A DNA stretch of 64,000 nt from a bacterium (GTDB lineage: Bacteria > Patescibacteriota > Minisyncoccia > 2-02-FULL-40-12 > IGHO2-12-FULL-4). The notes under the pieces were generated by a model that was not told where the DNA came from, did no database searches, and saw only the letters and a list, made by a program, of their open reading frames with translations. How positions within the stretch are numbered: the first letter of the stretch is position 1; each line of letters opens with the position of its first letter. The DNA lies in NCBI GenBank assembly GCA_030647955.1, contig JAUSIQ010000031.1, forward strand, positions 2,920 through 66,919, read 5' to 3'. The position numbers were made by a program, and so were the translations under genes. Below are positions 4,649-51,049 of the stretch, one piece after another.

Positions 4649-4659
4649 AAATTATAATT

Positions 4660-4733
4660 GATCCCGTTAGAGAAAAGCCGCCCCAAGGCGGCTGAAGCCA
4701 CTCGCCTGCGGCGAGAGCGTTCTCTAACGGGAT
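4660..4733. repeat. hairpin element with 13-bp terminal inverted repeats GATCCCGTTAGAG / CTCTAACGGGAT (family copy 1)
   Basis: Termini at 4660-4672 and 4722-4733. The GC-rich core holds nested hairpins GCCGCC-CCAA-GGCGGC and CTCGCC-TGC-GGCGAG. The same termini recur at 40433-40506. Confidence 0.6.
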
Positions 4734-4792
4734 TGACACTCCTACTCAATAAAGTACGATCAGCTTATCGATCTTTCACAACAGGAGTGGAT

Positions 4793-5458
4793 GTGCCCAG
4801 ACGACATCTAAAAAATTGTCAGTTAGGAATTTTTGATTGGAACGGAACGTTAGTCGATGATCTGCCTTTAGTACTGGAAAGCGTTGCGCGCATCTTTAAA
4901 CATTTTAAGACACCAATTCCCCACGATCTCGCCACAAAATATCGTGAGCAGATTACCGCCAATTTCTCTAAATTCTATCATCATCACGGTATACCATCAC
5001 ATATTACCGCTGAAGAAATGAACGCCCAAAGAGTAAAGTTTTTTAAGAAGTATCGCAGTTGCACTCGTCTTCGAGCTCACGCAAAACAAGTTCTCACATT
5101 CTGCAAAGCTCTCGGCTCAGTGCAAATTGGTATTGTTAGTGCAGAAGTTAATGAATTATTAAGAAAGGGCCTGCGTGATCTCGAGATAGAGGAGTACTTT
5201 GACTTTGTCTGGGCCGACACCCGAGATAAAACTGCTGCCCTGGAAGATGCCTGCGATGCGTTTGAAGTTCATCCCTCCAGAACATTTTATGTCGACGACA
5301 CCTGCGAAGGTGTTCGAGCCTCGGCCGCCACCGGTGTTATTCCAGTAGCACTCGTGACTCCCACCAGCTACGCCCCCGAAGCACTCCTAAGAGAGGAGGC
5401 TCGAGCCAAGAAGGCGATTATTATCACCGATCTTGCTCAGATTAAGCAGTTAATTTAA
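4793..5458 (+). CDS. HAD-superfamily hydrolase (phosphatase-like)
   Basis: Motif I IFDWNGTLVDD near the N-terminus. The 4658 ATG in the ORF track lies inside the upstream hairpin element, so the real start is probably GTG 4793, preceded by AGGAG at 4782-4786. Confidence 0.55.
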   Translation: MPRRHLKNCQLGIFDWNGTLVDDLPLVLESVARIFKHFKTPIPHDLATKYREQITANFSKFYHHHGIPSHITAEEMNAQRVKFFKKYRSCTRLRAHAKQVLTFCKALGSVQIGIVSAEVNELLRKGLRDLEIEEYFDFVWADTRDKTAALEDACDAFEVHPSRTFYVDDTCEGVRASAATGVIPVALVTPTSYAPEALLREEARAKKAIIITDLAQIKQLI

Positions 5459-18266: not shown

Positions 18267-20219
18267 ATGGGTATTGATATCATCACCAACATTGCTCTTA
18301 GTAACATTATCCTGTACTTCCAGGGTGTCTATGTTCAGTTTATCGGGCAAGCCCTAGCCGGACTGGCTAATCTATTTAGTCTATTCTTAAAATCGCAAGG
18401 AAATTACTTTGAAGATATCACTATTGTTAAAACCTCCTGGACCGTCTTTCGTGATTTTGCCAACATGTTCTTTATTCTGATTTTAGTGATTATTGCTTTT
18501 GCTACCATCTTTAACAATCAGAAGTATAACTGGAAGGGGCTGATTGCTAAGTTTTTACTTGCCGCCTTGCTTATAAACTTCAGCTTGGTGATTGGCGGAT
18601 TCATCATCAATATCGCTTCCACTCTCAACAATGTCATGCTTGCTCAATTTTCCGATATCACCGAAAACTTGGCGGGGGGATTTGGTTTACATAACTTAAT
18701 CAACGCCAGTCAGACCAAAGTCACGGGCAATACGGAAATAGCCGTCGCTTCGGCCATCATATCCACTATTGGAATCATAATTGTTGCTACCATCACCTTT
18801 CTTTCTATGCTGGCGGCTTTCGTATTCTCTATAGTCCGCGTCCCGATTCTTTGGGCTCTGTTGATTGTTTCTCCTCTAGCTTGGATTGCCAGTATTTTGC
18901 CAGGTACTAGAAAAATGTACAGCGATTGGTGGAAGGCTTTTCTCGGTTGGACCTTCTTTATGCCCATGTATCTTTTTACCTTAGTTATGGGTATTGCTAT
19001 TTTAGCTAACCGTCCCGACTTAGATGCCGCCGCCAAAATGTCTATTAGCCAAGACGTTCTTTCTCGCACCGGTAATTTATTTGGCTTCGCCGCTCAGGAT
19101 ATTTTCTTTTACATTCTGACTATTATCATTTTAATCGGCGGCCTAGGATTGTCCTTAAAAATGAGCTTCGCTGGTTCCAGCGGAGTAACCAAGGTCTTTG
19201 GCGGAATTAGTAAGGGCATAAACGGTTATGTAAAGAGACAGGCTGGAGTTACTGGTGCGCAAGAGGCCTTTAATCGCGTTAAGAAAGAGGGGCTGCCGGA
19301 AAAATGGGGTTGGGCTGGGCAACTATATACCGGAAGTCGTGGCGCTCAGAAAACTACCGCTAACCGTGAGCAGTGGCTGTCTAAGCAATTAGGCTTCCGC
19401 CCAGACATGAAGCGGCAGAAGCAGGAAGTGGGAGAAATTGATGCTGAGATCGGGCGCTTACGCGATTTGGAATCAGCTGGCCAACTCAAAGTAGACGGTG
19501 CCTTTGCTACTGAGGCTTACAAAAAGGACCGCAATTCCATTCGTGGAGCCGCCGAGCGTATGCTGTTATATGAAAAAGGTATGATTGATGGTACGGAATT
19601 CCAAAAAGACCAGCTTGGTTGGATCGAAAAGAATCCTTTCTTAGCCCAATCATCCGCGGATAAAGCTGAAAAAGGTAAGTACAAGAAAGTTCCTCCTAAG
19701 GACTTGATTAATATGGCTAAAGCAGAAGGTGCTTATGCCGGTTTTAAGACCGATGCCGCTACCGCTACCAGAAAGAAATGGTATAAGCATATTCAAGGAG
19801 ACGCCAAAGCTTTATCTGATAGTGAGTTTAATGATCAAGCCCTGATTAATGGTATTGGGATATTCGGCGCCGACACGCCAGAAGGTGGAGACTTTATTAA
19901 AGACGTTGGAAAAGTACGTCCAGATCTAGTTGCAAACTACAACCTGACCCTTCCTCCTACTAAAATTGGTGCCCCAGTGTTAACAAAAGCTGAGCACATC
20001 GAAAAGATGCTTAAAGATCCAGAAGACATTGCTAAAATGCCGATGGATGTATGGAATAATTCGAATTTTATTACTGCGTTAGCATCTAAATTTGCAGCTC
20101 TTGCCGCTACAAAAAAGGGTACAAAAGCCGTAAACGACTATAGGACTAAACTTGAAAATGCCGTAATAAACAATAACTTTGGAGCAGATCGAGCTGATAA
20201 GCTATCTAAGATTCCATAA
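18267..20219 (+). CDS. polytopic membrane protein, VirB6/TrbL-like (inference)
   Basis: 650 aa with at least 6 predicted TM helices and a long charged C-terminal domain; sits in a cluster with a VirB4-like ATPase. Confidence 0.45.
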   Translation: MGIDIITNIALSNIILYFQGVYVQFIGQALAGLANLFSLFLKSQGNYFEDITIVKTSWTVFRDFANMFFILILVIIAFATIFNNQKYNWKGLIAKFLLAALLINFSLVIGGFIINIASTLNNVMLAQFSDITENLAGGFGLHNLINASQTKVTGNTEIAVASAIISTIGIIIVATITFLSMLAAFVFSIVRVPILWALLIVSPLAWIASILPGTRKMYSDWWKAFLGWTFFMPMYLFTLVMGIAILANRPDLDAAAKMSISQDVLSRTGNLFGFAAQDIFFYILTIIILIGGLGLSLKMSFAGSSGVTKVFGGISKGINGYVKRQAGVTGAQEAFNRVKKEGLPEKWGWAGQLYTGSRGAQKTTANREQWLSKQLGFRPDMKRQKQEVGEIDAEIGRLRDLESAGQLKVDGAFATEAYKKDRNSIRGAAERMLLYEKGMIDGTEFQKDQLGWIEKNPFLAQSSADKAEKGKYKKVPPKDLINMAKAEGAYAGFKTDAATATRKKWYKHIQGDAKALSDSEFNDQALINGIGIFGADTPEGGDFIKDVGKVRPDLVANYNLTLPPTKIGAPVLTKAEHIEKMLKDPEDIAKMPMDVWNNSNFITALASKFAALAATKKGTKAVNDYRTKLENAVINNNFGADRADKLSKIP

Positions 20220-20685
20220 ACATATGCCGGACACATTAGATCAAAACACAGAGGGTCGATATGACACTCCCTACAGCGTGACGTTAAGGGAATTTTTTGA
20301 TGCATCCCAGAAAGTAAAGTACATAGAACGTATTTTACTTTTACCCGACAGACTAATTAGAGTTCTATTTGATTTTAAGATCGCAGAATTTATCGAAGAA
20401 GACTTGGGCCCTCGCTTCAACCTATCCGAAGAACAAAAAAAAGAATTAACTAAAATTATTCGCGATATATTATTATCCGATCTTTCCATAAATCAGTTGC
20501 CGCAAAAGATTCAAGAAAAAACAAAGGTTAACCAGAATGAGGCAGGGGATATAACTAAAGAGCTGCTCACCAAGGTTTTTGCCCCCGTTTTGAGTGATTT
20601 AAAAAGAATGCAGCCGCCACCTCCCGCGCCGCCTCTGAATAATCAAAATAATGTTTTAGATTTAAGAAACAAGAATAATAGTTAA
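20179..20685 (+). CDS. hypothetical protein
   Basis: 168-aa ORF overlapping the upstream gene by 40 nt; internal Met at 20224 is a more likely start. Confidence 0.4.
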   Translation: MEQIELISYLRFHKHMPDTLDQNTEGRYDTPYSVTLREFFDASQKVKYIERILLLPDRLIRVLFDFKIAEFIEEDLGPRFNLSEEQKKELTKIIRDILLSDLSINQLPQKIQEKTKVNQNEAGDITKELLTKVFAPVLSDLKRMQPPPPAPPLNNQNNVLDLRNKNNS

Positions 20686-20690
20686 AGATT

Positions 20691-20978
20691 ATGCGTTTTC
20701 AGGTTCCACAATTTATTGAGACAGAAGAAAAGATTATCGGCCCCTTCACGCTCAAACAGTTTATCTTTATCGCGATCGGAGGAGCATTATTGTTTTTAAT
20801 CTTCTTTATCACTCCTCCAACGATCTTTCTTTTTATCGCTATTCCCGTCGGAGCGATCTTCCTTGGTTTGGCATTGTTAAAAATAGACGACATTCCCATT
20901 TACCTTTATCTTTATTATTTTCTTAATTACCTAGTAAACCCGCGTCGCTATATTTACAGCCCAAAGAAGGATAGCTAA
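20691..20978 (+). CDS. small two-TM membrane protein (VirB3-like position)
   Basis: 95 aa, two hydrophobic helices; upstream of VirB4-like ATPase. Confidence 0.4.
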   Translation: MRFQVPQFIETEEKIIGPFTLKQFIFIAIGGALLFLIFFITPPTIFLFIAIPVGAIFLGLALLKIDDIPIYLYLYYFLNYLVNPRRYIYSPKKDS

Positions 20979-21067
20979 AAGTTATAATGTTCATAAAGTT
21001 CTTAAAGTTTTATAATTTGTAGCTACTTTATAAACTTTACACTTGATGAACTTGATAAACCAACCCC

Positions 21068-21694
21068 ATGGCTTCCCCTGGTCTTAACACCAAACAATTT
21101 GTTGATATTCACGATATCAAAGAAGACGTCATCATTCTTAAGAATGGTTCTTTGCGTATGATCGTCGAGGTGGGTTCGATTAATTTTGATCTGAAATCCA
21201 GCGACGAACAGATTGCCATCGTCGACGGTTTTAAGAACTTCTTAAACTCCTTAGATTTTCCACTACAAATCGTTATTCATTCTCGAAAACTCAATATCGA
21301 AGACTATCTTTCGCGTACCTCTCAAACCGTAGAAAACATCGGTAATGAGCTCTTACGTATCCAAGGAGTGGAATATGTAAAATTCGTGCGAGGCCTTGTA
21401 GAGCTCTCCAACGTCATGTCCAAGAGATTCTATGTGGTCATTCCTTTCTATATTCTAGAAACGACCGAATCCAAGAAAAGTGTTTGGGAAAGCATCAAGT
21501 TAACCTTCGGATCGTCTAAAAACAAGGTGGCTCTTTTGCAGGACAAAGAATTTGAGATCTACAAAGCACAAATCCAACAGCGCGCTGAACTAATCTTTGA
21601 TGGATTGCAGGGCATGGGCATTGGCGCCCGATTTTTGACCACCGAGGAATTGGTAAATATGTTTTCTAAGTTGTATAACCCCGATCTTGTTTAA
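21068..21694 (+). CDS. hypothetical protein (possibly a split N-terminal domain of VirB4)
   Basis: 208 aa, directly upstream (5-nt gap) of a VirB4-like ATPase that is shorter than typical; ACTTGATAAAC motif 7 nt upstream of the ATG. Confidence 0.4.
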   Translation: MASPGLNTKQFVDIHDIKEDVIILKNGSLRMIVEVGSINFDLKSSDEQIAIVDGFKNFLNSLDFPLQIVIHSRKLNIEDYLSRTSQTVENIGNELLRIQGVEYVKFVRGLVELSNVMSKRFYVVIPFYILETTESKKSVWESIKLTFGSSKNKVALLQDKEFEIYKAQIQQRAELIFDGLQGMGIGARFLTTEELVNMFSKLYNPDLV

Positions 21695-21699
21695 AAATT

Positions 21700-23490
21700 A
21701 TGTCACCAAAAGAAATTATTAATCTAGAAACGGTCTTAGGTAGCGATAACCAACAGGAGGGTGCCCTGGAAGATCGCTTTGCCCCGAGTGCCGTTAATAT
21801 CAACGCCAACAACGTCCAGATCGGTGAGGTTTTAGTGCGCACTCTTTTTCTTTCTACTCTGCCGCGCTACCTTAATACGAATTGGTTTTCGCCCATTATT
21901 AATTTGGACCGTGTTTTTGATGCCTCTCTTTTTATTCACCCTGCCAATTCTGGCGATGTCTTAAAGAAACTGCGCGATAAGCTGACGCGTTTACAGGCTC
22001 AATCTATTGAAGAGGCTAACCAAGGCAAAGTGCGCAACCCCATCTTAGACACCGCCCTTCAGGACATCGAAGCTCTCCGCGACCAGATCCAGCAGGGAAC
22101 TGACCGTTTCTTTGAATTTGGGGTTTACGTTACTATCTATGGTAAAGACGAAAAAGAATTAAGCGAGATCGAATCAAAAATTAAAGGCTACTTGGATGCC
22201 CAGTTAATTTACATCAAACAAGCTACTTTCCGCATGAAGGAGGGTTTTTTATCCACTATGCCTTTGAACAATGACGTGCTTAGTGCGCATAATTCTCTCA
22301 ACACCGAACCGATCTCTTCTTCCTTTCCTTTTGTTTCCTACGATCTAACTTCGGATAGTGGCGTCTTATACGGCATCAACACTCACAACAACTCCTTAGT
22401 AATTTTTGATCGTTTCAGTCTACCAAACTACAACATGGTAGTTTTTGGTAGTTCCGGAAGCGGTAAAAGTTACGTTGTTAAATTAGAATTATTGCGCAGC
22501 TTGATGATTGGTACCGAGGTTTTCATTATCGATCCGGAAAACGAATACCGTCACTTGGCCGGCACTGTCGGAGGATCGGTCGTAGACATTTCCATCGCCT
22601 CTGACAGTCACATTAACCCCTTCGACCTGCCAGATTTACAAGAGGGGGAGGACTTTAAAGAGGTGTTCCGTAGTCATATTTTAGACCTTACCGGTTTATT
22701 AAAATTAATGATGGGAGAACTTACTCCTGAAGAGGCCTCTCTCTTGGATGAAGCGCTTATTCAGGCCTATGCTTTAAAAGATATCACACCGGAGAATAAC
22801 GGGGGAAAGGGCGAAGTACCTCTATTATCGGATTTTCAGAATATTTTAGAAGGATTGGCCGGCGCTGAATCATTAGCGATTCGTATCCGAAAATACACCC
22901 AAGGCACTTTCTCGGGATTCTTAAACCAACCCACTAACGTTTCATTAAATAAACAATTGGTTGTCTTTGGTATTCGAGATATGGAAGAAGAGTTACGCCC
23001 CATCGCCATGTACTTAGTTCTAAACTACATCTGGGCCAAAGTGCGCTCACAAATGAAGAAAAGAATTTTGGTGGTAGACGAGGCGTGGTGGCTACTGAAA
23101 TACGACGCCGGAGGACAATTCTTACTGAACGTCGCCAAGCGTGCCCGTAAGTATTTCTTAGGATTAACCACCATCTCCCAAGACGTGCAGGACTTTTTAA
23201 GCTCTCCCAATGGTAAGCCTATCGTTACCAACTCGTCTTTTCAGCTGCTGATGAAGCAATCAGCCGCCGCCATTGATGTTATTAAAGATGCCTTCCACCT
23301 CACGGATGCCGAAAAATTCTTATTACTGGAATCAACCGTCGGTCACGGCCTATTCTTTGCTGGTCCCAACCATGTTGGTATCCGTATCGTCCCGTCTTAT
23401 GTCGAAGACCAAATTATTACCTCCGACCCTCGTCAGCTAATGGAAATTGAGCAGGCCAAGAAAGAATGGGCTAAAGAGCAAAAGAAATAG
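21700..23490 (+). CDS. VirB4/TrbE/TraC-family type IV secretion ATPase
   Basis: Walker A VVFGSSGSGKSY, Walker B ILVVDEAWWLL (DEAW typical of VirB4), 596 aa. Confidence 0.8.
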   Translation: MSPKEIINLETVLGSDNQQEGALEDRFAPSAVNINANNVQIGEVLVRTLFLSTLPRYLNTNWFSPIINLDRVFDASLFIHPANSGDVLKKLRDKLTRLQAQSIEEANQGKVRNPILDTALQDIEALRDQIQQGTDRFFEFGVYVTIYGKDEKELSEIESKIKGYLDAQLIYIKQATFRMKEGFLSTMPLNNDVLSAHNSLNTEPISSSFPFVSYDLTSDSGVLYGINTHNNSLVIFDRFSLPNYNMVVFGSSGSGKSYVVKLELLRSLMIGTEVFIIDPENEYRHLAGTVGGSVVDISIASDSHINPFDLPDLQEGEDFKEVFRSHILDLTGLLKLMMGELTPEEASLLDEALIQAYALKDITPENNGGKGEVPLLSDFQNILEGLAGAESLAIRIRKYTQGTFSGFLNQPTNVSLNKQLVVFGIRDMEEELRPIAMYLVLNYIWAKVRSQMKKRILVVDEAWWLLKYDAGGQFLLNVAKRARKYFLGLTTISQDVQDFLSSPNGKPIVTNSSFQLLMKQSAAAIDVIKDAFHLTDAEKFLLLESTVGHGLFFAGPNHVGIRIVPSYVEDQIITSDPRQLMEIEQAKKEWAKEQKK

Positions 23491-23499
23491 CGTAACATC

Positions 23500-24108
23500 A
23501 TGGACCAAGAAGAATACCAAGCGCAGGAATTAATTATCGCTAGAAACCAAGCCTTCCTTGCTAGAGAGAGGGCTGAAGCCGAAGAAAAAGCTCAAAAAGA
23601 ACAGCACGAAAAGGATAAAATGGGCTGGGGCGTTTTTATATTTGCCCTAGTTTTAAGTATTATCGCGGACATTGTTGAGATAGTCACTCTTGGTACTATT
23701 GGTTGGCTAGTGGGATTAGTGATTGATTTTATATTATTCATCACTTTTGGCATGACTCGCGCCGGTCAAAAGCAATGGAAGAAATTAGTCGGCGCTTTAG
23801 TCGCAGAATCTATTCCTGGTATCAACATCTTGCCAGTTCGCAGCATAATGGTCATCTGGAGCTTTATTGCTTCTCGTCCGAAGTTAATAGGAAAACTAGA
23901 TAAAGTCCTCAAAGTTGCCTCAAAAATTCCTTCGCCCATCGCGGCCCAACTTAAACTTGCCTCTAAGGCTGTAAGCATGGCTTCTGCCGCTGAACAGGGT
24001 GATATTAAAGGAGCTCTTCGCGCCGCAACTGCTTTTAAAGGCACCAATAAGCCTTCGGCAAAAGCTGGCACAGTTGGTGCTGATATTGAAGCCAAGGAAG
24101 CGGCATGA
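23500..24108 (+). CDS. membrane protein, hypothetical
   Basis: 202 aa; charged coiled N-terminus, then two TM helices. Confidence 0.4.
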   Translation: MDQEEYQAQELIIARNQAFLARERAEAEEKAQKEQHEKDKMGWGVFIFALVLSIIADIVEIVTLGTIGWLVGLVIDFILFITFGMTRAGQKQWKKLVGALVAESIPGINILPVRSIMVIWSFIASRPKLIGKLDKVLKVASKIPSPIAAQLKLASKAVSMASAAEQGDIKGALRAATAFKGTNKPSAKAGTVGADIEAKEAA

Positions 24109-24120
24109 TAAAGTAATACT

Positions 24121-25197
24121 ATGTATTCTAAAGTTGTTCTAGTTTGTCTTATAGTTATTCTCGCTGGTTTAGTTTTGTTTTTGGGTGGCTATTTACTGAC
24201 CGATAAAAATCCGGGACAAAAAGCGAACATCGCTAATTTAAGCGGCTTCGACTCTGAAGAAGAGGGGAGCCAATCAGATCCCGCCTCGCGTCTCTATCGT
24301 TTAAGCACCACCAAAGCTACTAGTCCGGCTTTATCTGAAGATGGCAAAAGAGTATTGTTTTTCGAAGCAGCTTCCGGAAAAGTTTTAGACAGTGATTTTG
24401 AAGGAAAAGATAGCACTGTAGTTTCCGGTAAGCTCCTCACGGGCTTTTCCACAGCAGAGTGGTCGCGTAGTGGTTATGAAACACTTATTGCCCTGCGCTC
24501 TAAAAACAATCTAGGCTATTCGTACTTTAATCTAAAAACTGGACAAATTTCTAAGTTAAATCCCAAGATTACTAATCCCGTTTGGTCACCGAGTGGTCAA
24601 AAAATTGCTTACCTCTTCTTCGATTCTGCAGCGGGAGAAGGACAGATCAGCGTCTCTAATCCAGACGGATCAGTTTACAAGAATGTTTTACCTGCTCGTC
24701 TCGATCAAATCGCCGTATTATGGCCTAAAGACAACCTTCTCGCTTTTCATAATCGTACCGGAGAAGAACGCACTTTATTTAGCTTATCGGCCGACGGAGA
24801 ACAGCTCGAAAAGCTCCTTGGTCCGCTTGCCAACCTAAAAGTACTTTGGTCTCCCGATGCCTCCAAGATTTGGATTTCTTACACTGTAGACCAACAGAAA
24901 AAGGCTAGTTTAGTGGATGTAAAGAATCGAACCGAAACCGCTTTTGATTTAATTACGAGCGCCGACAAATGTGTCTGGAGTGCCAACTCCGTCCAGGTTT
25001 ATTGCGGAGGAAAAACTGCCGAGGATCAATCCGAAGGTCTTTTTAATGTCGACACCAAAACTTCTAAGGTCCATCATCTATTTTCTCCCTCGGGAGCAGA
25101 AGATATCGACATCGCCAATCCTTTTCTAGCTCCCGCCGAAAATTACATTATTTTCATAAACGCATACGACCAATATTTGTACAGTATATCCCTCTAA
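24121..25197 (+). CDS. secreted TolB-like beta-propeller protein
   Basis: N-terminal TM/signal; repeated WSPSGQKIAY / WSPDASKIW blade motifs. Confidence 0.5.
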   Translation: MYSKVVLVCLIVILAGLVLFLGGYLLTDKNPGQKANIANLSGFDSEEEGSQSDPASRLYRLSTTKATSPALSEDGKRVLFFEAASGKVLDSDFEGKDSTVVSGKLLTGFSTAEWSRSGYETLIALRSKNNLGYSYFNLKTGQISKLNPKITNPVWSPSGQKIAYLFFDSAAGEGQISVSNPDGSVYKNVLPARLDQIAVLWPKDNLLAFHNRTGEERTLFSLSADGEQLEKLLGPLANLKVLWSPDASKIWISYTVDQQKKASLVDVKNRTETAFDLITSADKCVWSANSVQVYCGGKTAEDQSEGLFNVDTKTSKVHHLFSPSGAEDIDIANPFLAPAENYIIFINAYDQYLYSISL

Positions 25198-25241: not shown

Positions 25242-25730
25242 CTAAATGGTCAATGGTCGGATAACGACGCGTCTTTGAGGCTCTTCGCCAATACTTTCAG
25301 TTTCGATATCAGGATAGGAGGCGAGTTCGATGTGCACTAACCGGCGCTCATAAGAGGACATGGGAACAAGAGCCTCGGCTTTTTTATTATCTCGCACTCG
25401 ATTAGCCACTTCCACGGCACTTTTGACGATTACTTTAGCGCGGGATTTACGATAATCGTTAATATCTAAAGCGAAGTTGATCTGTCCGGGAGCTTTTTTA
25501 AAAGCGATGACTTTAGTAATGTGCTCAATCGCTTTTAAGTTTTGTCCATTCTTTCCAATCAGCATACTGAGATCATCTGGAGAATAGATGGAAATAACTT
25601 TTAAAGTAGGATCTTTTTCGTTTGGTAATACTTCTAGAGTTGCTTCATAACCAAGTTGAGAAACCACATCCTTGACGATGTTTTTTACGATCTGGTGCTG
25701 TTCGTTTTTCTCAAGGTTTAATTCGCTCAT
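25242..25730 (-). CDS. jag: Jag/KhpB RNA-binding protein (KH + R3H domains)
   Basis: KH-like IGKNGQNLKAIEHI and R3H-like YERRLVHIELA; conserved position downstream of yidC. Confidence 0.8.
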   Translation of the reverse strand: MSELNLEKNEQHQIVKNIVKDVVSQLGYEATLEVLPNEKDPTLKVISIYSPDDLSMLIGKNGQNLKAIEHITKVIAFKKAPGQINFALDINDYRKSRAKVIVKSAVEVANRVRDNKKAEALVPMSSYERRLVHIELASYPDIETESIGEEPQRRVVIRPLTI

Positions 25731-25733
25731 AGA

Positions 25734-26450
25734 TTAGACTGTCTTCGGTACAGCTCTTCGCACCCACCATTGTTCGAAGACAGAAAACAACGTGGTCACT
25801 GCCCAGTACAAAACCAATCCTGCGGGCAAGTTCCAACCAATAATTATAATCATAACCGGGAAGAAATACAACATTTGTCTATTCATTGCGCTTAAATCTG
25901 GACCGGATCCGGGAGTAGCTGGAGTATTAGATTTGGGCGGTAAACTCAACTTGGATTGAATAAATTGGAGACCTGCCGCAATAAACACCAAAACAAGATT
26001 ACGCGAGGCGAGATCAATAAATCCTAGAGAAATATTATTAATCACTTCTGGTCTATTCACAAATCCATATAATAGATCAAGACTTTCGGGCTTAAATCCA
26101 TTAAGAAAAGCGCGATAGAGGGCAATAAGAAAGGGGAGTTGGACTAACAAAGGCAGACAACCCGAGATGGGACTAATCTGGTTTTCTTTATAGAGAGCCA
26201 TCGTCGCTTGTGCTTGAGCAGCTTTGTCATTCTTATACTTTTCTTGAATAGTTTTCAGCTTCGGCTGCAATTCGGCTAATTTCTTTTGGGAGCGTGTAGC
26301 CTTAATAGACCATGGCATGAAGACTACTCGCACCAAAACCGTAAGCACGACAATCGCCACCCCAAAATCGTTTCCGGGAATAATATTGTAAATCCCCACT
26401 AAAAGGTTGAAAATCGGCTTATAAAGTATTTCTCTAAAAAGTGTGCTCAT
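25734..26450 (-). CDS. yidC: membrane protein insertase YidC/Oxa1 family (short form)
   Basis: 238 aa, polytopic, CLPLLVQLPFLIALYRAF motif; synteny with yidD-rnpA-rpmH. Confidence 0.85.
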   Translation of the reverse strand: MSTLFREILYKPIFNLLVGIYNIIPGNDFGVAIVVLTVLVRVVFMPWSIKATRSQKKLAELQPKLKTIQEKYKNDKAAQAQATMALYKENQISPISGCLPLLVQLPFLIALYRAFLNGFKPESLDLLYGFVNRPEVINNISLGFIDLASRNLVLVFIAAGLQFIQSKLSLPPKSNTPATPGSGPDLSAMNRQMLYFFPVMIIIIGWNLPAGLVLYWAVTTLFSVFEQWWVRRAVPKTV

Positions 26451-26468
26451 AAATTTAAAAACGGTTTA

Positions 26469-26714
26469 TTACTTACGAGAGGGGACGAGGTCCACACCGC
26501 GGGCACCCCACGGATGACATCGTCCAATTCTTTTTAATGCTAACCAAGTGCCTTTCCAGGCACCATGTTTCAGTAAAGCTTCTTCGGCATACTCTGAACA
26601 AGTAGGCACAAAGCGGCAATCAGCCGCCAAAAATGGTTTGAATAGCGGTAAAATCACCAGTAAAAAAACTTTTTTATAACCGGTGCTGATTAATTGGGTG
26701 AGGACTTTAGTCAT
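26469..26714 (-). CDS. yidD: membrane protein insertion efficiency factor YidD
   Basis: [15 protein letters not shown]...[12 protein letters not shown] signature. Confidence 0.85.
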
Positions 26715-26748
26715 AACTCCTAAGTGTATTAGAAATAAGATTAGTTAC

Positions 26749-27102
26749 TTAGACAATATTGGCTTTTTGTAATATATCTCTTAAGCTACTACTGACTTCC
26801 CTATATTTTTTATTTTTAACTCCGGTTTGAGCCATAATTATAAAATCTGTATGAGAAGTTTTCGAGTTTGAAACCGCTGTGACAATATTTCGAAGAGCAG
26901 CACTAATCGTTCTTTTAAGTTTATTTCTCTCTACGGCTTTAGAAGCAATGGATACCGGAACTACTATCGCCGCTCGATCAGTTAAGAGACTGTTCCTAAT
27001 AAATTTGATCAGAAAAAAGCTATTACGCAGACTAGAACCGGTCTTCAATATTTTTTCAAAGTCTTTTTTCTTCTTTATTCTGCTTTGTTTAGGTAAAGCC
27101 AT
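26749..27102 (-). CDS. rnpA: ribonuclease P protein component
   Basis: 117 aa basic protein with KLKR motif; start codon overlaps rpmH stop (TAATG); canonical rpmH-rnpA order. Confidence 0.75.
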   Translation of the reverse strand: MALPKQSRIKKKKDFEKILKTGSSLRNSFFLIKFIRNSLLTDRAAIVVPVSIASKAVERNKLKRTISAALRNIVTAVSNSKTSHTDFIIMAQTGVKNKKYREVSSSLRDILQKANIV

Positions 27103-27239
27103 TAAATAGTCAATTTCTTTCTTCCTTTGCGCATGCGGCGACGCAAAACTTTCTGTCCCGCATTAGTGCGTGATCTTTTTAAAAACCCGTGTTTTTTCTT
27201 TCTTTTCCTGGACTTGGGACGATAAAGTGTAGCTTTCAT
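27102..27239 (-). CDS. rpmH: 50S ribosomal protein L34
   Basis: Not in ORF track (45 aa). Reverse-strand translation gives [45 protein letters not shown]. Confidence 0.85.
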
Positions 27240-27529
27240 TTCTTTCTAGTTAGTATTCACTTCTGTACGGCTTTCAGAAGTAAAGACTTCCTGTATTAAA
27301 CATTTTCTTTACCATTCTCGGACTTATTCACATATGTAAACTGCCTGGGCCGCTTAAGTAGGAGAATGAATGTGCTTTAAATCATAATAAAATTTTCCGC
27401 AAATGTCAAAGAGTCAAATTTACTCTTTCCACTTTTTATACACAGGTTATGCACCGTTCAAGATTGTTCTTTATTCCATTTATTTGAAGTACAATACCCC
27501 TATAAGATAAGTATTATTTTCTCGCCACT

Positions 27530-28894
27530 ATGACAAAGGAAGAATTATGGAAAGCAGTACTAGGAGAGATGGAAACATCTTTGTCTAAAGCTAATTTTAC
27601 CACCTGGTTTAAGAACACCTCAATTGTCGCTAGCGAAACTGATTCGATCGTCGTTAGTGTTCCAAATGGATTCATCAAAGAATGGTTAGAAAATAAGTTT
27701 AATAAACAAATTCTAACCTCTATCCAACACCTCGTTCCGGAGATTCGAGAGGTGCGCTACACTATTGGTAATAATAATCCGTTTTTAAATGCCAAGAAGG
27801 ATTTCTCTCAGTTCGTACCAGACAAATTAGCGGACCAGAAACAATCCGGAGAAGTTAACCCTCAAACCAACTTAAATAAGAAGTATTCTTTTGATTCCTT
27901 TGTGGTGGGTTCTCATAACGAACTGGCTCATGCGGCTACTTTGGCCGTTTCTAAAGGACCGGGAAAGGTTTATAACCCGCTATTTCTTTATGGGGGAGTG
28001 GGGTTAGGAAAAACCCACTTATTACAATCCACTGGCAATAAAGTCTTAGAAGATGATCCTACTAAGAAGATTCTCTACATTCCGTCCGAGCGTCTTACTC
28101 AAGAAATTGTTGAATCGGTACGTAATAAAAGCGTAGAAGATTTAAAACATCGTTACGCCAAAATTGATGTATTAATCATTGATGATATTCAATTTATTGC
28201 CGGTAAAGAAAAGACCCAAGAAATTATTTTCTCTACCTTCAACGAACTTTACGGAAAGAATAAACAGATCATCCTATCCTCAGATCGTCCTCCTAAGGCC
28301 ATCCCAGCCCTCGAGGAGCGCCTCCGCTCCCGCTTTGAAGGGGGAATGATCGCTGACGTCAGTTTACCGGATTACGAGACACGTTTGGCTATTTTAAAAA
28401 TGAAATCAAAGCAGAAAAACTTTGAATTAGATGAGAATGTTTACAGTTATATTGCCACTAATATTCAAAAGAATATTCGCGAGCTAGAAGGAGCTTTAAA
28501 TCGAGTTATAGCGGTCAGTCAAATATATAATAAGAGCCTAGACCTTAAAGAAGTAAAAAAGCTCTTAGTAACCTACTTAAGTACGCCATATAAGAAGACT
28601 ACTCCTCAATTAATTTTAAAATCTGTCTCCGATTTTTATGGTATCTCCCTTCAAGATCTCGTCAAAAGAAGCCGCAAAAAAGAAGTAGTCCGCCCTCGAC
28701 AAATTGCTATGTATCTTTTGCGAGAAGAAACCAAGTCTTCTTTTCCAGAAATCGGCCAAAAATTAGGCGGACGCGACCACTCTACTGTTATCCATGCTTA
28801 CGAAAAAGTTAAAACCGAAGAAGAAAGCGACGAAGCAACCAAACAAGAATTAGTATTAATCAAAGAAAGAATTTACCAGTCTATGGATAAGTAG
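27530..28894 (+). CDS. dnaA: chromosomal replication initiator DnaA
   Basis: Walker [12 protein letters not shown], Walker [10 protein letters not shown]-terminal DNA-binding helix RPRQIAMYL; 454 aa. Confidence 0.95.
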
Positions 28895-29137
28895 CTGTTT
28901 ATATCTATGTGTATAAACCAGGGATAAGAGTGGGATGATTGCGCTAACCTACCCCAAATAGCCAATTTTATCCCAGAGTTATTCCCAGTTGCCCATAAGT
29001 TATCACAAATCTATCCATAAAAAATTTAAGCGTACTAGCCTAAGAACACTATACGTAATAAGGTAATTCCGAAGAGAGAGGAGATGATTGTGGATAAGTA
29101 GTACGCTCTCTAATAGTAGATATCTTATATTTAAGAA
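28895..29137. promoter_or_regulatory. candidate oriC: DnaA-box cluster between dnaA and dnaN
   Basis: Perfect TGTGGATAA at 29089-29097. Near-boxes TGTGTATAA 28908-28916, TTATCCCAG ~28967, TTATCACAA 29000-29008, TATCCATAA 29012-29020. AT-rich tracts present. Confidence 0.6.
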
Positions 29138-30226
29138 ATGATTATAACTATTAACCAACGGAAGGTGAAAGAAGCTTTAGCGGTTACGGAGAAAATTGTC
29201 TCTAAGAATTTAGCTTTGCCTATTTTACAAAACGTTGTGATTAGAACTGAAAATGGTCGGGTCAAAATTTCCTCCACAAATTTAGAGATCGGGATTAATT
29301 TCTGGCTAGGAGCGAAGATTGAGGAGGAGGGGGATGTGGCTATTCCGGCTCGTCTCTTTTCGGAGTTTATTAACAATGTCCAAAGCGAAAAAGTAACTAT
29401 TAGTACCAAAGAGAACATCGCCTATATTAATACCGAAAACTCTAAAACTAAGATTATTGGTTTTCCGGCGAAAGATTTTCCAATTATTCCCAAGAATAAA
29501 AACACCCCTTTTGTTACCTTGGGAGCTAAAAAGATTTGGCAGTTATTTAGCGCGGTGATTGATTCCGCTTCTCTTTCCGAGGCTAGGCCGGAGTTAGCAG
29601 GGGTATTTGTGCATTTCTCTCCGACTAAAATTGAAAGTGCAGCCACAGATAGTTTTCGTCTTGCTGAACAGGTGATCTATGAAAATGGGAAAATTGATCA
29701 GAGTATGATTATCCCTAAGACCACCATCCAAGAGCTTATACGGGCCCTAGGAGATCGGGAAGAGGATATTGCACTGTCTCTATCGGAAAACCAAATCTTC
29801 TTCTCTACGAGCGATTTTGAGATCGTCTCTCGTTTAATCGATGGACACTATCCGGAATACAAAAGAGTCATCCCTGAAAAATTCTTATCCAAATATACTC
29901 TCTCCAGGGAAGAGCTAGAGAAAAGCGTGCGTTTAGCGAGTATTTTTACCTCTAGTATTGCCGATATTAAATTACAAGCCGATAAAGATGGTTTTAAGGT
30001 TTTAGCTAAGAACGCTGATAAAGGGGAGGTAAATTTGTCTGTGCCAGGAACGCTAAAAAATGGACCATTTGGGATTGCTGTAAATTATCGCTATCTTTTA
30101 GATGGTTTAAAAATCATTCCTACTTCTCAAGTAGAAATCGAGTTTACAGGAGAGGGGAGTCCTTTAATTTTACATCCAGAAGGTAAAACAGACTTTACTT
30201 ATTTAATCATGCCTCTCCGTAGTTAG
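29138..30226 (+). CDS. dnaN: DNA polymerase III beta sliding clamp
   Basis: 362 aa; position after dnaA; clamp-like three-domain length; LPILQNV motif. Confidence 0.9.
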   Translation: MIITINQRKVKEALAVTEKIVSKNLALPILQNVVIRTENGRVKISSTNLEIGINFWLGAKIEEEGDVAIPARLFSEFINNVQSEKVTISTKENIAYINTENSKTKIIGFPAKDFPIIPKNKNTPFVTLGAKKIWQLFSAVIDSASLSEARPELAGVFVHFSPTKIESAATDSFRLAEQVIYENGKIDQSMIIPKTTIQELIRALGDREEDIALSLSENQIFFSTSDFEIVSRLIDGHYPEYKRVIPEKFLSKYTLSREELEKSVRLASIFTSSIADIKLQADKDGFKVLAKNADKGEVNLSVPGTLKNGPFGIAVNYRYLLDGLKIIPTSQVEIEFTGEGSPLILHPEGKTDFTYLIMPLRS

Positions 30227-36875: not shown

Positions 36876-37075
36876 CACAACCACGATTGGTGCAATTTTT
36901 GACAGAAAATGAAGAGTGTAACCTGTAGGCAACTAAATCCTTTCTAACCACTGCGATTTATTGGGATAACTTATTGATGTTTACTTTGGTTCCGACTGGG
37001 GTATTACTCAGGGTTATCTTGTCCCGGCATACTAAGTTATCCGGGTTTGCCTACAGATTACACGCCTCATTTTGA
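36876..37075 (+). ncRNA. candidate structured small RNA downstream of a strong promoter
   Basis: TTGACA 36843-36848, TGTATAAA 36862-36869. Long-range pairing CCTGTAGGCAA (36922-36932) with TTGCCTACAG (37047-37056). Nested GGGATAACTT / AAGTTATCCG. Ends in a U-run ~37068-37075. No + strand ORF follows. Confidence 0.35.
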
Positions 37076-38730: not shown

Positions 38731-39117
38731 ATACCACTATATTTTATCATTCTGTGCCTAACATAGCGAACCCCAGGATATTATCAAGAACGATTTCTGT
38801 GGATAACCCGCCCCTAGTTGATCCCGTACGAAGTTTTTACAGTCGGAGGTTGTTTTTTAAAATTTTAAGCATATTTAGACGAGACCATACTCTTTTTTGG
38901 ATGTGGATAATCAAACTTCGTTCGGGATTGACAACCGTTGGCTATTGTAATACAATGTAATTTAAAGATTGATTTCTGAGCCAAGGTCCGCATTGAAGCG
39001 GGCATTTTCTTTAATAGTTGTCCGAGCGCAGTGCGTAAGTGCACGAGCACGGCTACAAATAATACTAAATTTTGTAGTTACTCGTCTACTTCGTATTTCC
39101 TCGTAAACAAAATTTGT

Positions 39118-40428: not shown

Positions 40429-40432
40429 TATG

Positions 40433-40506
40433 GATCCCGTTAGAGGTTTCGCTCGTGACCAAGTCGCGAGTCCGTAGGACCTCGGCGGGGCTACCTCTAA
40501 CGGGAT
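40433..40506. repeat. hairpin element with terminal inverted repeats GATCCCGTTAGAG / CTCTAACGGGAT (family copy 2)
   Basis: Termini 40433-40445 and 40495-40506. Core differs from copy 1 but is again GC-rich with internal hairpins. Lies between the nusA stop (40428) and the tig ATG (40505). Confidence 0.6.
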
Positions 40507-41788
40507 GGAGATTAATTTAAAACGGGGAAAAAACTCTGAAGCGGAGCTGAAAGTCGAGCTCACGCAAGAAGACCTCAAACAATACATTAAAAAAGCCGGC
40601 GAAGAAGTGGCGGCTTCAGTGGCCATGGACGGTTTTCGAGCCGGCAAGGTTCCTTTGGATGTGGTCAGAAAGAAAGTGGGGGATGAGAAGATTTTGGAGG
40701 TGGCCATGGATTTGGCTATTAAAGAGAGTTTTTTTCAAGCTATTAAAAAGGAAAAAGTAGATATTATTTCTTCTTCGGATTTGAAGGTGATCGATAACAC
40801 CGCGGAGAAGTTGAAATACGAAGTGAAGATTATTCTTTTTCCGGAGGTGAAATTGGGAGAGTATAAGAATTTAGGAATGAGTCTTAAGCCGGTCAGCGTC
40901 AGCGAAGAAGAAGTGCAGGATACTTTAAAATATATTCAAAAAACTCGAGCGGAGTATAAGGAAGTAGAAACTCCGGCCGAAAAAGATCACCGGCTCGAAA
41001 TCGATTTCGAAGTCAAAGATAAAGGAGCGGTGATCGACGGAGGAAAGAGTGAGAATCATCCTGTGGTCCTGGGGGAAGGCAATTTTATTCCTGGCTTTGA
41101 GGATCACTTGGTGGGGATGAAAAAAGGAGAAACGAAAAACTTTTCTCTGGAGGTGCCGGGGGATTATTATCAAAAAAGTGTGGCTGGCAAGAAACTCGAT
41201 TTCTTGGTAACTATTAAGACTATTAAAGGAGCAATTCTGCCGGAGTTAACGGACGATTTTGCGAAGAGCCTAGGAAAGTTTGAGTCAGTGGAGGATTTAA
41301 AAAAGAATGTTAGTCGCGGTTTGCAAAGCGAAAGAGATCAGAAAGAGCGAGACCGTGTACGTTTGTTGATTCTCGATAAAGTTAATGAAAAAACCGAGAT
41401 GGAAGTTCCGGATAAAATGGTGGAAGAGCAGCTGGATATCATGGTGAGTAATTTCGATCAGAACCTCCACGCCAGGGGATTGGAGCTAAGTCTTTATCTA
41501 ACTCAAATCAGCAAGACTCAAGATGAGTTGCGCAAAGAATGGCGAGAGCGAGCCGTGAAACAGATTCGACAAGGATTAATTATGCGGGCTATCAGCAAAG
41601 CAGAAGAAATCAAGGTGGGCGAAGAAGAGGTGGCTCAAGCCGTCGGGGCGCTGTTAAGTCGCTATGCGGGAGCGGAAGAACTACAAGCTAAGGTTGATCC
41701 GGAAGAGCTAAAAAACAGAGCAAAGGAATCTCTACTTAACGAAAAGGTATTTGATTATCTCGAGAAAGAGAATATCAAAGAAAACTAA
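40505..41788 (+). CDS. tig: trigger factor
   Basis: Ribosome-binding signature GFRAGKVP, FKBP-like middle domain; 427 aa. Confidence 0.85.
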   Translation: MEINLKRGKNSEAELKVELTQEDLKQYIKKAGEEVAASVAMDGFRAGKVPLDVVRKKVGDEKILEVAMDLAIKESFFQAIKKEKVDIISSSDLKVIDNTAEKLKYEVKIILFPEVKLGEYKNLGMSLKPVSVSEEEVQDTLKYIQKTRAEYKEVETPAEKDHRLEIDFEVKDKGAVIDGGKSENHPVVLGEGNFIPGFEDHLVGMKKGETKNFSLEVPGDYYQKSVAGKKLDFLVTIKTIKGAILPELTDDFAKSLGKFESVEDLKKNVSRGLQSERDQKERDRVRLLILDKVNEKTEMEVPDKMVEEQLDIMVSNFDQNLHARGLELSLYLTQISKTQDELRKEWRERAVKQIRQGLIMRAISKAEEIKVGEEEVAQAVGALLSRYAGAEELQAKVDPEELKNRAKESLLNEKVFDYLEKENIKEN

Positions 41789-50574: not shown

Positions 50575-50803
50575 TTTCGACTATATATTAATGTAATGAG
50601 TACACCCGTAAAGTTAATCAAGAATCCGACAAAGATCGTAAAGTGGTTGCCGGTAAGTAATCCTTCGGGGGTTTCCAGGCCAATGTTTAAGTGATGCAGA
50701 ATGTCTAAAACCAAGCCGACTGCCTCGACCGCTGTACCGAATAGACTAATCTTGATTCCTTTTTGGAAGGTATTCATTTGTTTAATTGTTATTAAGCTTT
50801 TTT

Positions 50804-50853
50804 ATCCAAGACCAAAAGCAAACTATTGCTTTTGGTGGGCGCGCTTGGATTCG
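50804..50853. repeat. 50-bp direct repeat carrying a copy of the tRNA-Ile 3' end plus downstream hairpin (second copy 50944-50993)
   Basis: ATCCAAGACCAAAAGCAAACTATTGCTTTTGGTGGGCGCGCTTGGATTCG is identical at both positions. It includes the 21 nt of tRNA-Ile from T-loop to CCA and the hairpin CCAAAAGCAA/TTGCTTTTGG. The ~90-bp segment between copies is GC-rich. Confidence 0.65.
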
Positions 50854-50972
50854 GTTTCGCCTCTCGCCTCGCCAGGCGCTCGGCTCGGGCTAACCACCGC
50901 TTCGTGATTCCGCCTGCTGGCGAAATATCACTCCGGCGTTCTCATCCAAGACCAAAAGCAAACTATTGCTTT

Positions 50973-51049
50973 TGGTGGGCGCGCTTGGATTCGAACCAAG
51001 GACCGCCGAGGTATAAGCTCGGTGCTCTAACCGACTGAGCTACGCGCCC
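50973..51049 (-). tRNA. tRNA-Ile (anticodon UAU), CCA encoded
   Basis: Acceptor GGGCGCG/CGCGCCC, anticodon stem CCGAG/CUCGG, loop CUUAUAC, T-arm CUUGG-UUCGAAU-CCAAG, ACCA end. Confidence 0.7.

Follow-up and report, generated by a model that had tools for sequence, protein, structure and literature searches.

Solitary hairpins beside patescibacterial genes as a probable non-autonomous foldback element with a 4-bp target duplication

What are the hairpins with conserved inverted ends that lie between the genes of a patescibacterial genome, and how did they come to stand exactly against the signals of the genes that follow them? The question is raised by a stretch of 64 kb (contig JAUSIQ010000031.1 of GenBank assembly GCA_030647955.1, positions 2,920 to 66,919), hereafter the window; coordinates are positions within it, and labels of the type L122 denote loci outside it. 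An earlier note, made from the sequence alone, had described three such hairpins and likened them to transposable elements of the miniature inverted-repeat type (MITEs), repetitive extragenic palindromes (REPs) and palindrome-associated transposable elements (PATEs). We find that the hairpins are best explained, with a probability of roughly 0.78, as a non-autonomous foldback MITE that is moved in trans by a transposase cutting with a 4-bp stagger, and whose copies survive where the signal split by the insertion is rebuilt. The MITE-like part of the earlier comparison is borne out by terminal inverted repeats, a 4-bp duplication, absence at syntenic sites and occurrence in many genomes. The REP and PATE alternatives, in contrast, fit badly with the presence of a target duplication, the lack of a fixed 5' tetranucleotide and the lack of a Y1 transposase in the window.

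Four copies and their target-site duplication

Four copies of the element are present in the window, at 4662-4732, 38822-38927, 40435-40505 and 59597-59716. Copy 1 (4662-4732; 71 nt, T-CCCGTTAGAG...CTCTAACGGG-A) has a core of two GC-rich hairpins and lies between a DUF11 surface-protein gene with its terminator on one side and a HAD hydrolase gene on the other (Pfam). It is preceded by TTGA at 4658-4661, and the same four bases on its right, together with the following CA, form the −35 hexamer TTGACA upstream of the HAD gene (4733-4738, plus strand). Copy 2 (40435-40505; 71 nt) fills the nusA-tig gap between two TGGA sequences, at 40431-40434 and 40506-40509. The tig start codon begins with the terminal A of this copy (40505) and is completed by the TG of the right-hand TGGA, while the left-hand TGGA together with the A at 40430 keeps the old tig ATG. 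This old start now opens a frame of 15 codons (40430-40477, MDPVRGFARDQVASP*) with its stop inside copy 2. The best homologues of tig belong to Paceibacterota/Parcubacteria, which marks the window as patescibacterial. The Trigger_N profile aligns from tig residue 1, which indicates that the ATG at the right end of copy 2 is the real start.

The two remaining copies are more divergent and have AT-rich cores. Copy 4, a variant of 106 nt (38822-38927, T-CCCGTACGAAGTTT...AAACTTCGTTCGGG-A), has a T2SSE ATPase gene on one side and nusA on the other; TTGA borders it at 38818-38821 and again at 38928-38931, and the right-hand TTGA is part of the nusA −35 box TTGACA (38928-38933). It was detected as TCCCGTACGAAGTTT...AAACTTCGTTCGGGA upstream of nusA by an inverted-repeat scan and a stem search. 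Copy 3 is degenerate (59597-59716; 120 nt, T-CCCGTTTAGAGAT...ATCTCTAACGGG-A) and occurs between an S1-domain gene and an MBL-fold gene. Its left end TCCCGTTTAGAG carries a one-base stem bulge, the left arm (59597-59609, TCCCGTTTAGAGA) having an additional T, and the right arm extends to 59716. The flanks are TTCA (59593-59596) and ATCA (59717-59720), or TGAA/TGAT on the minus strand. The S1-domain gene (58446-59597) is encoded on the minus strand with copy 3 directly 5' of its start codon, so that on this strand the last base of the element and the adjoining TG read ATG. A stem search for CCCG...CGGG found no copies in the window beyond these four.

The earlier note had placed copies 1 and 2 exactly right, at 4660-4733 and 40433-40506, where the pattern GATCCCGTTAGAG-N48-CTCTAACGGGAT is present. 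Its third copy, given as 59668-59717 after rpsA, is real, yet it spans 59597-59716 and lies 5' of the S1-domain gene rather than after it. The note's count of three overlooked the variant at 38822-38927, and its description of cores of about 48 nt that are always GC-rich holds for copies 1 and 2, which have N48 cores with hairpins, and not for the AT-rich copies 3 and 4. Its 13-bp terminus shrinks to an 11-nt inverted repeat, T plus CCCGTTAGAG; the GA and T that had been counted with it belong to the 4-bp duplication, and look alike in copies 1 and 2 because the duplications happen to be TTGA and TGGA. The pair ATCCCGT-N30-60-ACGGGAT is found twice in the window, against 0.00 expected from 100 dinucleotide-preserving shuffles. 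Pairs of uptake sequences were considered and ruled out, as the 10-mer never occurs singly in the window.

A scan of species-representative genomes (a collection of 596 Gb) for CCCGTTAGAG-N30-60-CTCTAACGGG yielded at least 120 loci; 125 copies with exact ends from these loci were aligned with their flanks. The inverted end is 11 nt long, (C/T)CCCGTTAGAG...CTCTAACGGG(G/A), and is usually lengthened by pairs specific to a copy. Its outermost base pair is complementary in 118 of the 125 copies (C:G in 89, T:A in 29), which assigns the base just outside CCCG/CGGG to the element. The four bases next to this pair form a direct repeat, the middle positions being identical in 94 and 90 of the 125 copies against 44 and 38 expected, and positions beyond the 4 bp match only at chance level. 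A 6-bp duplication is ruled out by these outer positions. The favored duplications have the form T-N-N-A (TTTA, TCAA, TTCA, TTGA, TAAA, TGAA) in a loosely palindromic context, R-TNNA-Y, and all four window copies obey the 4-bp rule, with TTGA/TTGA, TGGA/TGGA, TTCA/ATCA and TTGA/TTGA in copies 1 to 4, respectively. The check for target-site duplications, which had been suggested beforehand, was the decisive test.

Nested and tandem insertions, which speak for mobility, each have their own duplication (L004, L007, L073, L103), as do elements of only 27 to 29 nt (L004, L137). Such mini forms are the lower extreme of a family whose copies mostly measure about 50 to 120 bp, with 51 to 117 nt between the ends and no coding capacity. 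Subfamilies with the other ends CCCGTTAGAA and CCCGCACCTTCT follow the same 4-bp rule. The latter, in a Planctomycetaceae metagenome-assembled genome (MAG), has ends of the form (C/T)CCCGCACCTTCT with about 25 conserved nt that differ between the two ends. Its copies (L042 713-816, 5853-5960 and 7146-7253; L097 3915-4021) have unrelated AT-rich centers; they, too, occupy precisely the space between genes and border on start codons or on a TTGAC box.

The duplication also bears on a reading of the hairpins as integron attC-like sites, which has next to no probability. R' boxes have the form GTTRRRY and R'' boxes the form RYYYAAC, and the resemblance of GTTAGAG and CTCTAAC to them is all that speaks for it. 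The order of the boxes is reversed, with GTT... at the 5' and ...AAC at the 3' side, the copies are solitary instead of one cassette apart, a target duplication flanks them, and they stand in housekeeping operons without an integrase.

At three of the four sites, namely the nusA-tig junction, the nusA −35 box and the S1 gene start, no element is present in relatives that keep the gene order and whose flanking proteins are 55-81% identical. At the nusA-tig junction it is absent in six loci (L122, L123, L124/L125, L169, L170, L171) that keep the order T2SSE(-)/nusA/tig, with tig 55-66% identical and gaps of 14, −4, 8, 4 and 2 nt and one overlap, compared with 76 nt in the window, where the gap consists of element plus duplication. 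When copy 2 is removed in silico along with one TGGA, the sequence reads TAA-T-ATGGAG, a junction of a single base that resembles the relatives' junctions, and this supports the view that the present tig ATG is composed of the terminal A (40505) and the TG of the right duplication. At the nusA promoter, L122 has a single TTGACA-N17-TACAAT that aligns on both sides, where the window reads TTGA-element-TTGACA-N17-TACAAT. A different foldback element, CCCCGTAGTGAAAATTCCGA...TCGGAATTTCTACTACGGGG, occupies the same TTGA in the more distant L171 (~845-925, upstream of nusA), which points to either an insertion hot spot or an old insertion that was precisely lost in L122.

At the S1 gene start the element is missing from L172 and L174, in which the S1 protein is 77-78% identical and the MBL-fold neighbor is kept. 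Both have a −10-like box TAGGAT, about 10 nt and then ATGGAT (L172 1470-1503; L174 1410-1438), and the window has the same TAGGAT box followed by ATGAT, the 120-nt element and ATGAATACGGTA (box region 59717-59750, minus strand). The N terminus MNTVIN of the window protein aligns with MDTVTN of L174. Since the −10-like box lies only about 10 nt before the ATG in L172 and L174, the sequence suggests that the S1 mRNA of these relatives is leaderless or has a very short leader. The S1-domain gene (58446-59597) is annotated with 383 amino acids in the NCBI record and 367 on the Logan contig; an element at the start codon evidently confuses start prediction.

Spread across phyla and core structure

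The at least 120 loci belong, by the group names in their records, to Patescibacteria (at least 70), Planctomycetota (at least 21), Omnitrophota (at least 14) and Nitrospirota (at least 4), with at least 5 in an unclassified "bacterium" and at least 6 in other groups. One of these last six, a Methanosarcinales match, is without the flanking features of the family and is probably due to chance. Several matches lie on long contigs, up to 1.7 Mb, which excludes mis-binning as the explanation of this breadth, and some MAGs contain multiple contigs or copies (e.g., MFKK01, MFMI01, CAZBLD01). Plasmid BLAST searches with copy 1 and with a copy of the Planctomycetaceae subfamily returned chance fragments only. 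Among 23 matches on IMG/VR contigs (L126-L148), only L137 and L139 resemble family members; the other 21 are one homologous phage terminator, AAAAAGGCCCGTTAGAG-7nt-CTCTAACGGGCCTTTTT, which has no target duplication and is not a member of the family.

The arms of this terminator equal the element's 10-mer by coincidence, and it is the one finding that would favor chance similarity or ordinary terminator hairpins as an account of the whole set. We regard that account as practically negligible, given 0.00 paired matches expected in the window, at least 120 loci where a hand estimate gives about 34 exact matches (a few dozen) by chance in the whole 596-Gb collection, the lack of T-runs, and a duplication that agrees at its middle positions at more than twice the expected rate (94 and 90 of 125 against 44 and 38).

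Folding of the copies shows a closing stem of 14-17 bp around two nested hairpins in copies 1 and 2, on either strand. Copy 1 reaches −47.5 kcal/mol (z = −7.1), copy 2 −40.5 kcal/mol (z = −3.6), and copy 3 has z values of −4.5 and −3.3. Rfam returned only tRNAs at gathering scores, and in E-value mode its matches were at chance level (best E = 0.026, far below gathering scores). In a 13-sequence alignment, all six pairs of helix 3 have changed on both sides, with 98.6% of cells paired, and the covariation score was reached by none of 500 shuffles.

Although the ends are common to the phyla, the cores fall into recurring classes that are specific to a phylum. Among the matches listed, the class of copy 1 recurs at seven other loci, of which six are named as Patescibacteria and one is unclassified; a class with two hairpins, beginning ACAGG..., is found only in Planctomycetota, and further classes are found only in Omnitrophota. 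There is also a purine-rich, unstructured class with a 57-nt core, and similar purine-rich 57-nt copies lie inside open reading frames (ORFs; L064, L075). The orientation of the copy-1 class relative to the flanking genes is mixed (3 sense, 5 antisense), and this speaks against a strand-specific RNA function. Copies within one genome mostly have unrelated cores.

Variable cores between constant repeats, directly upstream of genes and with one core class in both orientations, are also what one would see if native upstream regions were flipped between inverted repeats by a site-specific recombinase. We consider such invertons highly improbable. Orthologous sites lack the entire unit with its repeats, and the target sequence is present in duplicate beside the copies; moreover, many copies lie inside ORFs, the GC-rich hairpin cores have no promoter, and no recombinase gene is found nearby.

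The compensatory changes and the very short, hairpin-only copies would fit a REP- or PATE-type element that moves as single-stranded DNA and whose hairpin a RAYT- or IS200/IS605-type Y1 (HUH) transposase recognizes. The resemblance of some left flanks (e.g., TTTAC, TTGAC, TTGAT) to IS200/IS605 target sites could be added. These families, however, make no target duplication, whereas here a variable 4-bp sequence is duplicated and present as a single copy at the empty site. In addition, there is no conserved GTAG, and a Y1 transposase is neither found in the window by Pfam scans nor recurrent near the at least 120 loci, which makes this type of movement very unlikely.

Another structured stretch, at 36906-37073, is a 168-nt intergenic element between ruvB and T2SSE with imperfect inverted ends of 27 nt. 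Its minus strand folds with a long closing stem (−55.9 kcal/mol, z = −5.3) and has no Rfam match; it could represent a small RNA of no known family or a further element of the foldback type.

Where copies persist

Of 127 copies from the at least 120 loci, 19 end exactly where the ATG or GTG of a long ORF begins, on its first base, compared with 0 to 3 at each offset from 1 to 30. Beyond the other end of these copies the old start (ATGAAT/C) can mostly still be recognized, and in about half of the cases the upstream gene stops within 0-23 nt, which makes them tight operon junctions like nusA-tig. A −35-like hexamer is present at the junctions of copies 1 and 4 in the window and, elsewhere, at many right flanks (G/ATTGAC). 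Beside copy 1, a promoter-like site with 10 of 12 matches consists of the −35 TTGACA (4733-4738) and a −10 TACGAT ending at 4760, ahead of the GTG start of the HAD gene at 4793; the corresponding site between copy 4 and nusA has 11 of 12 matches and starts at the right-hand duplication.

Copies are also found within reading frames. Nine of the 127 lie in type IV prepilin leaders, at the GFT motif that is cleaved between G and F (L007 2943-3104 and 6122-6199; L030; L074; L087 6777-6827 and 7893-7943; L109; L121 7215-7277). Eight of the nine read ...(K/R)GFT-PLE...SLT-GFT[LM][IV]E..., and the first of two tandem copies in L007 reads GLTPLE. This reading implies that a cleavable G-F site is rebuilt, in which case the added peptide would leave with the leader. 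A further view of coding copies comes from the 19 of the 127 that lie within long open frames: the lengths of all 19 are divisible by 3, as are those of 80 of the 127 copies overall. In an FtsZ-like ORF, a copy situated 60 codons before the end is translated as PVRDSKSKEGIQNKHISNG.

Exact placement at start codons and directly 5' of −35 boxes, the covarying internal hairpins, and ends that are identical across phyla while cores differ could be taken as signs of a host cis-regulatory structure, such as an element acting at translation starts or operon junctions, a site for RNase III or an insulator of promoters, that is kept by selection rather than spread by mobility. Against this stand the target duplication and the empty orthologous sites, which demonstrate insertion, and the occurrence of the same family within coding sequence, in the leaders of pilins and as insertions into other copies. 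The mixed orientation of the copy-1 class, the lack of an Rfam match and the fact that relatives express the same genes without the element point in the same direction, so that we hold a regulatory origin to be quite improbable.

The foldback MITE offers a mechanism that would account for these positions. Because the ends are conserved across phyla, they are presumably recognized by a protein, as the earlier note had supposed: a transposase supplied in trans would bind the 11-nt ends, cut the target with a 4-bp stagger and join the element to it, and gap repair would create the 4-bp duplication. A piggyBac/IS1380-like DDE enzyme is the closest match, since the ends start with CCC and the duplication has the form T..A. 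Most insertions would be harmful in the tightly packed genomes of Patescibacteria. The surviving copies would be those in which the duplication and the terminal base restore the signal that was split (slashes mark junctions with the element): a −35 box, TTGA/CA, in copies 1 and 4; a start codon, A/TGNA, in copies 2 and 3 and in the 19 of 127 elsewhere; and a prepilin cleavage site, GG G/TTTA/C. Other survivors would occupy in-frame positions in tolerant protein segments. We infer that the pattern of persistence reflects a preference for TNNA targets together with survivorship in genomes dense in genes.

It is plausible, as proposed earlier, that copy 2 is transcribed into the 5' untranslated region of tig. 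A transcribed element would introduce a stem-loop of very high stability into the nusA-tig junction, and in the case of copy 3 the short or absent S1 leader of the relatives would become a structured leader of 120 nt.

Several observations weigh against the foldback MITE moved in trans. Pfam scans detect no transposase, integrase or reverse transcriptase in the window, and clustering of 900 ORFs in about 0.94 Mb around the at least 120 loci reveals no recurrent transposase; the recurrent families are PilB/T2SSE, PilC, PilM, pilins, FtsZ, FtsA, LeuRS, LigA, DprA and glycolytic enzymes. In the locus regions we see no long element with these ends as its borders, and the single ends there that might bound an autonomous element all have a degenerate partner nearby; a transposase-bearing element with these ends was likewise not found in the window, the locus flanks or the plasmid and viral-contig searches. 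There is no sign of recent amplification, given that cores within one genome are mostly unrelated. Compensatory changes in the hairpins are not predicted for a cut-and-paste enzyme that needs only the ends, and the mini elements of 27-29 nt are too short for bringing two double-stranded ends together. The excess of start-codon copies at offset 0 could reflect function instead of survivorship. Lastly, the relatives are too distant for the duplicated bases of copy 2 to be read directly in an unoccupied allele; a metagenome search for close tig relatives returned only proteins of 25-43% identity and one fragment of 27 residues.

Some of these points would be accommodated if the element were more than selfish DNA, being transposed as a folded hairpin by a widely shared enzyme or co-opted as a gene-start module. 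The 11-nt ends that are identical across Patescibacteria, Planctomycetota, Omnitrophota and Nitrospirota argue for this, as do the covarying hairpins, the hairpin-only mini copies and the exact docking at start codons, −35 boxes and prepilin sites. A co-opted module may then organize gene starts in compact genomes that are poor in Shine-Dalgarno sequences or leaderless. We consider this possibility unlikely, though worth keeping in view.

Relation to known elements and significance

A literature search on both 10-mers returned unrelated primer matches only, and our searches turned up no account of these termini, nor of any patescibacterial MITE. Among known systems, the Correia elements (CREE/NEMIS) of Neisseria are small, non-coding sequences with inverted repeats that lie near genes, provide promoter elements at their junctions and form stem-loops in transcripts (PMC10969869). 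The element described here is likewise small, non-coding, bounded by inverted repeats and located beside genes. However, Correia elements measure 100-155 bp, have 26-bp ends and a TA duplication and occur in Neisseria only, compared with 50-120 bp (down to 27), 11-nt ends, a 4-bp duplication and several phyla here, and the −35 box next to our element comes from the duplicated target and not from the element itself. To our knowledge, no transposase of Correia elements has been identified in their host.

Rickettsia palindromic elements (RPE) are palindromic selfish DNA that is often inserted in frame in protein genes and translated (PMC10969869). Similar in-frame copies in reduced genomes are observed here, including the FtsZ C-terminal region and the prepilin leaders. 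RPE are nevertheless about 100-150 bp long, confined to Rickettsia and unrelated in sequence, and neither a 4-bp duplication nor docking at start codons is described for them.

With piggyBac, which has CCC ends and a 4-bp duplication of the TTAA type (variants TAAA and TCAA), and of which IS1380 is the prokaryotic relative or outgroup (PMC10813416), the element has in common the CCC ends and a 4-bp T..A duplication, its TNNA being looser than TTAA. No transposase of this or any other family was found linked to the element, and the resemblance is best understood as one in the way of working and not as demonstrated membership. For IS1380, the family table of ISfinder gives duplications of 4-5 bp and ends in CC. 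Taken together, the hairpins probably constitute a new superfamily with several end variants.

REPs are imperfect palindromes of 20-40 nt in genomes that also contain a REP-associated tyrosine transposase (RAYT) gene. Together with bacterial interspersed mosaic elements (BIMEs), they resemble the element as short, GC-rich extragenic palindromes that form hairpins in mRNA. They differ in having no target duplication, a 5' GTAG and a species-specific sequence with its own RAYT, where the element has a duplication, no GTAG and ends identical across phyla. PATE and IS200/IS605 elements use one fixed tetra- or pentanucleotide and distinct left and right hairpins without a duplication, in contrast to the variable duplicated 4-mers and the single foldback seen here. 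TIGR arrays, known from Patescibacteria and phages, are tandem 36-nt units beside a gene for Tas, a Nop-domain protein (PMC12045711); they were considered and ruled out, because the copies are solitary, 50-120 nt long and without an adjacent Tas-like gene.

The window has further features of its own. A direct repeat of about 50 nt (50802-50855 and 50942-50995) takes in the 3' end of tRNA-Ile(tat) (minus strand, 50973-51049) and, immediately past it, the hairpin ACCAAAAGCAAACTATTGCTTTTGGT, copied 140 nt away; it has the look of a scar left by integration or of a tRNA that was duplicated in part. ORFs without a Pfam match surround a VirB4/TraG-like ATPase gene (21700-23490) at 16153-25197, a region that may be a type IV secretion or DNA-transfer module. 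At 25242-30226 we observe jag/khpB, yidC, dnaA (27530-28894) and dnaN (29138-30226), and the window likely spans the replication origin region.

The genomes of Patescibacteria are very small and densely packed with genes, and mobile DNA is believed to be scarce in them. The biology of the hairpins is that of ordinary selfish DNA, and what deserves attention is the identity of the ends across phyla, the missing transposase and the rebuilding of signals. Ends that are common to at least 70 patescibacterial loci and to free-living Planctomycetota and Omnitrophota point to an unrecognized transposase or route of gene flow among these uncultured groups. The copies illustrate that an insertion can be harmless when its duplication and one terminal base restore what was split, be it a promoter box, a start codon or the cleavage site of a signal peptide. 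Such elements break assemblies and shift predicted gene starts, add peptides to pilin leaders and to a protein tail, and could serve as strain markers in metagenomes.

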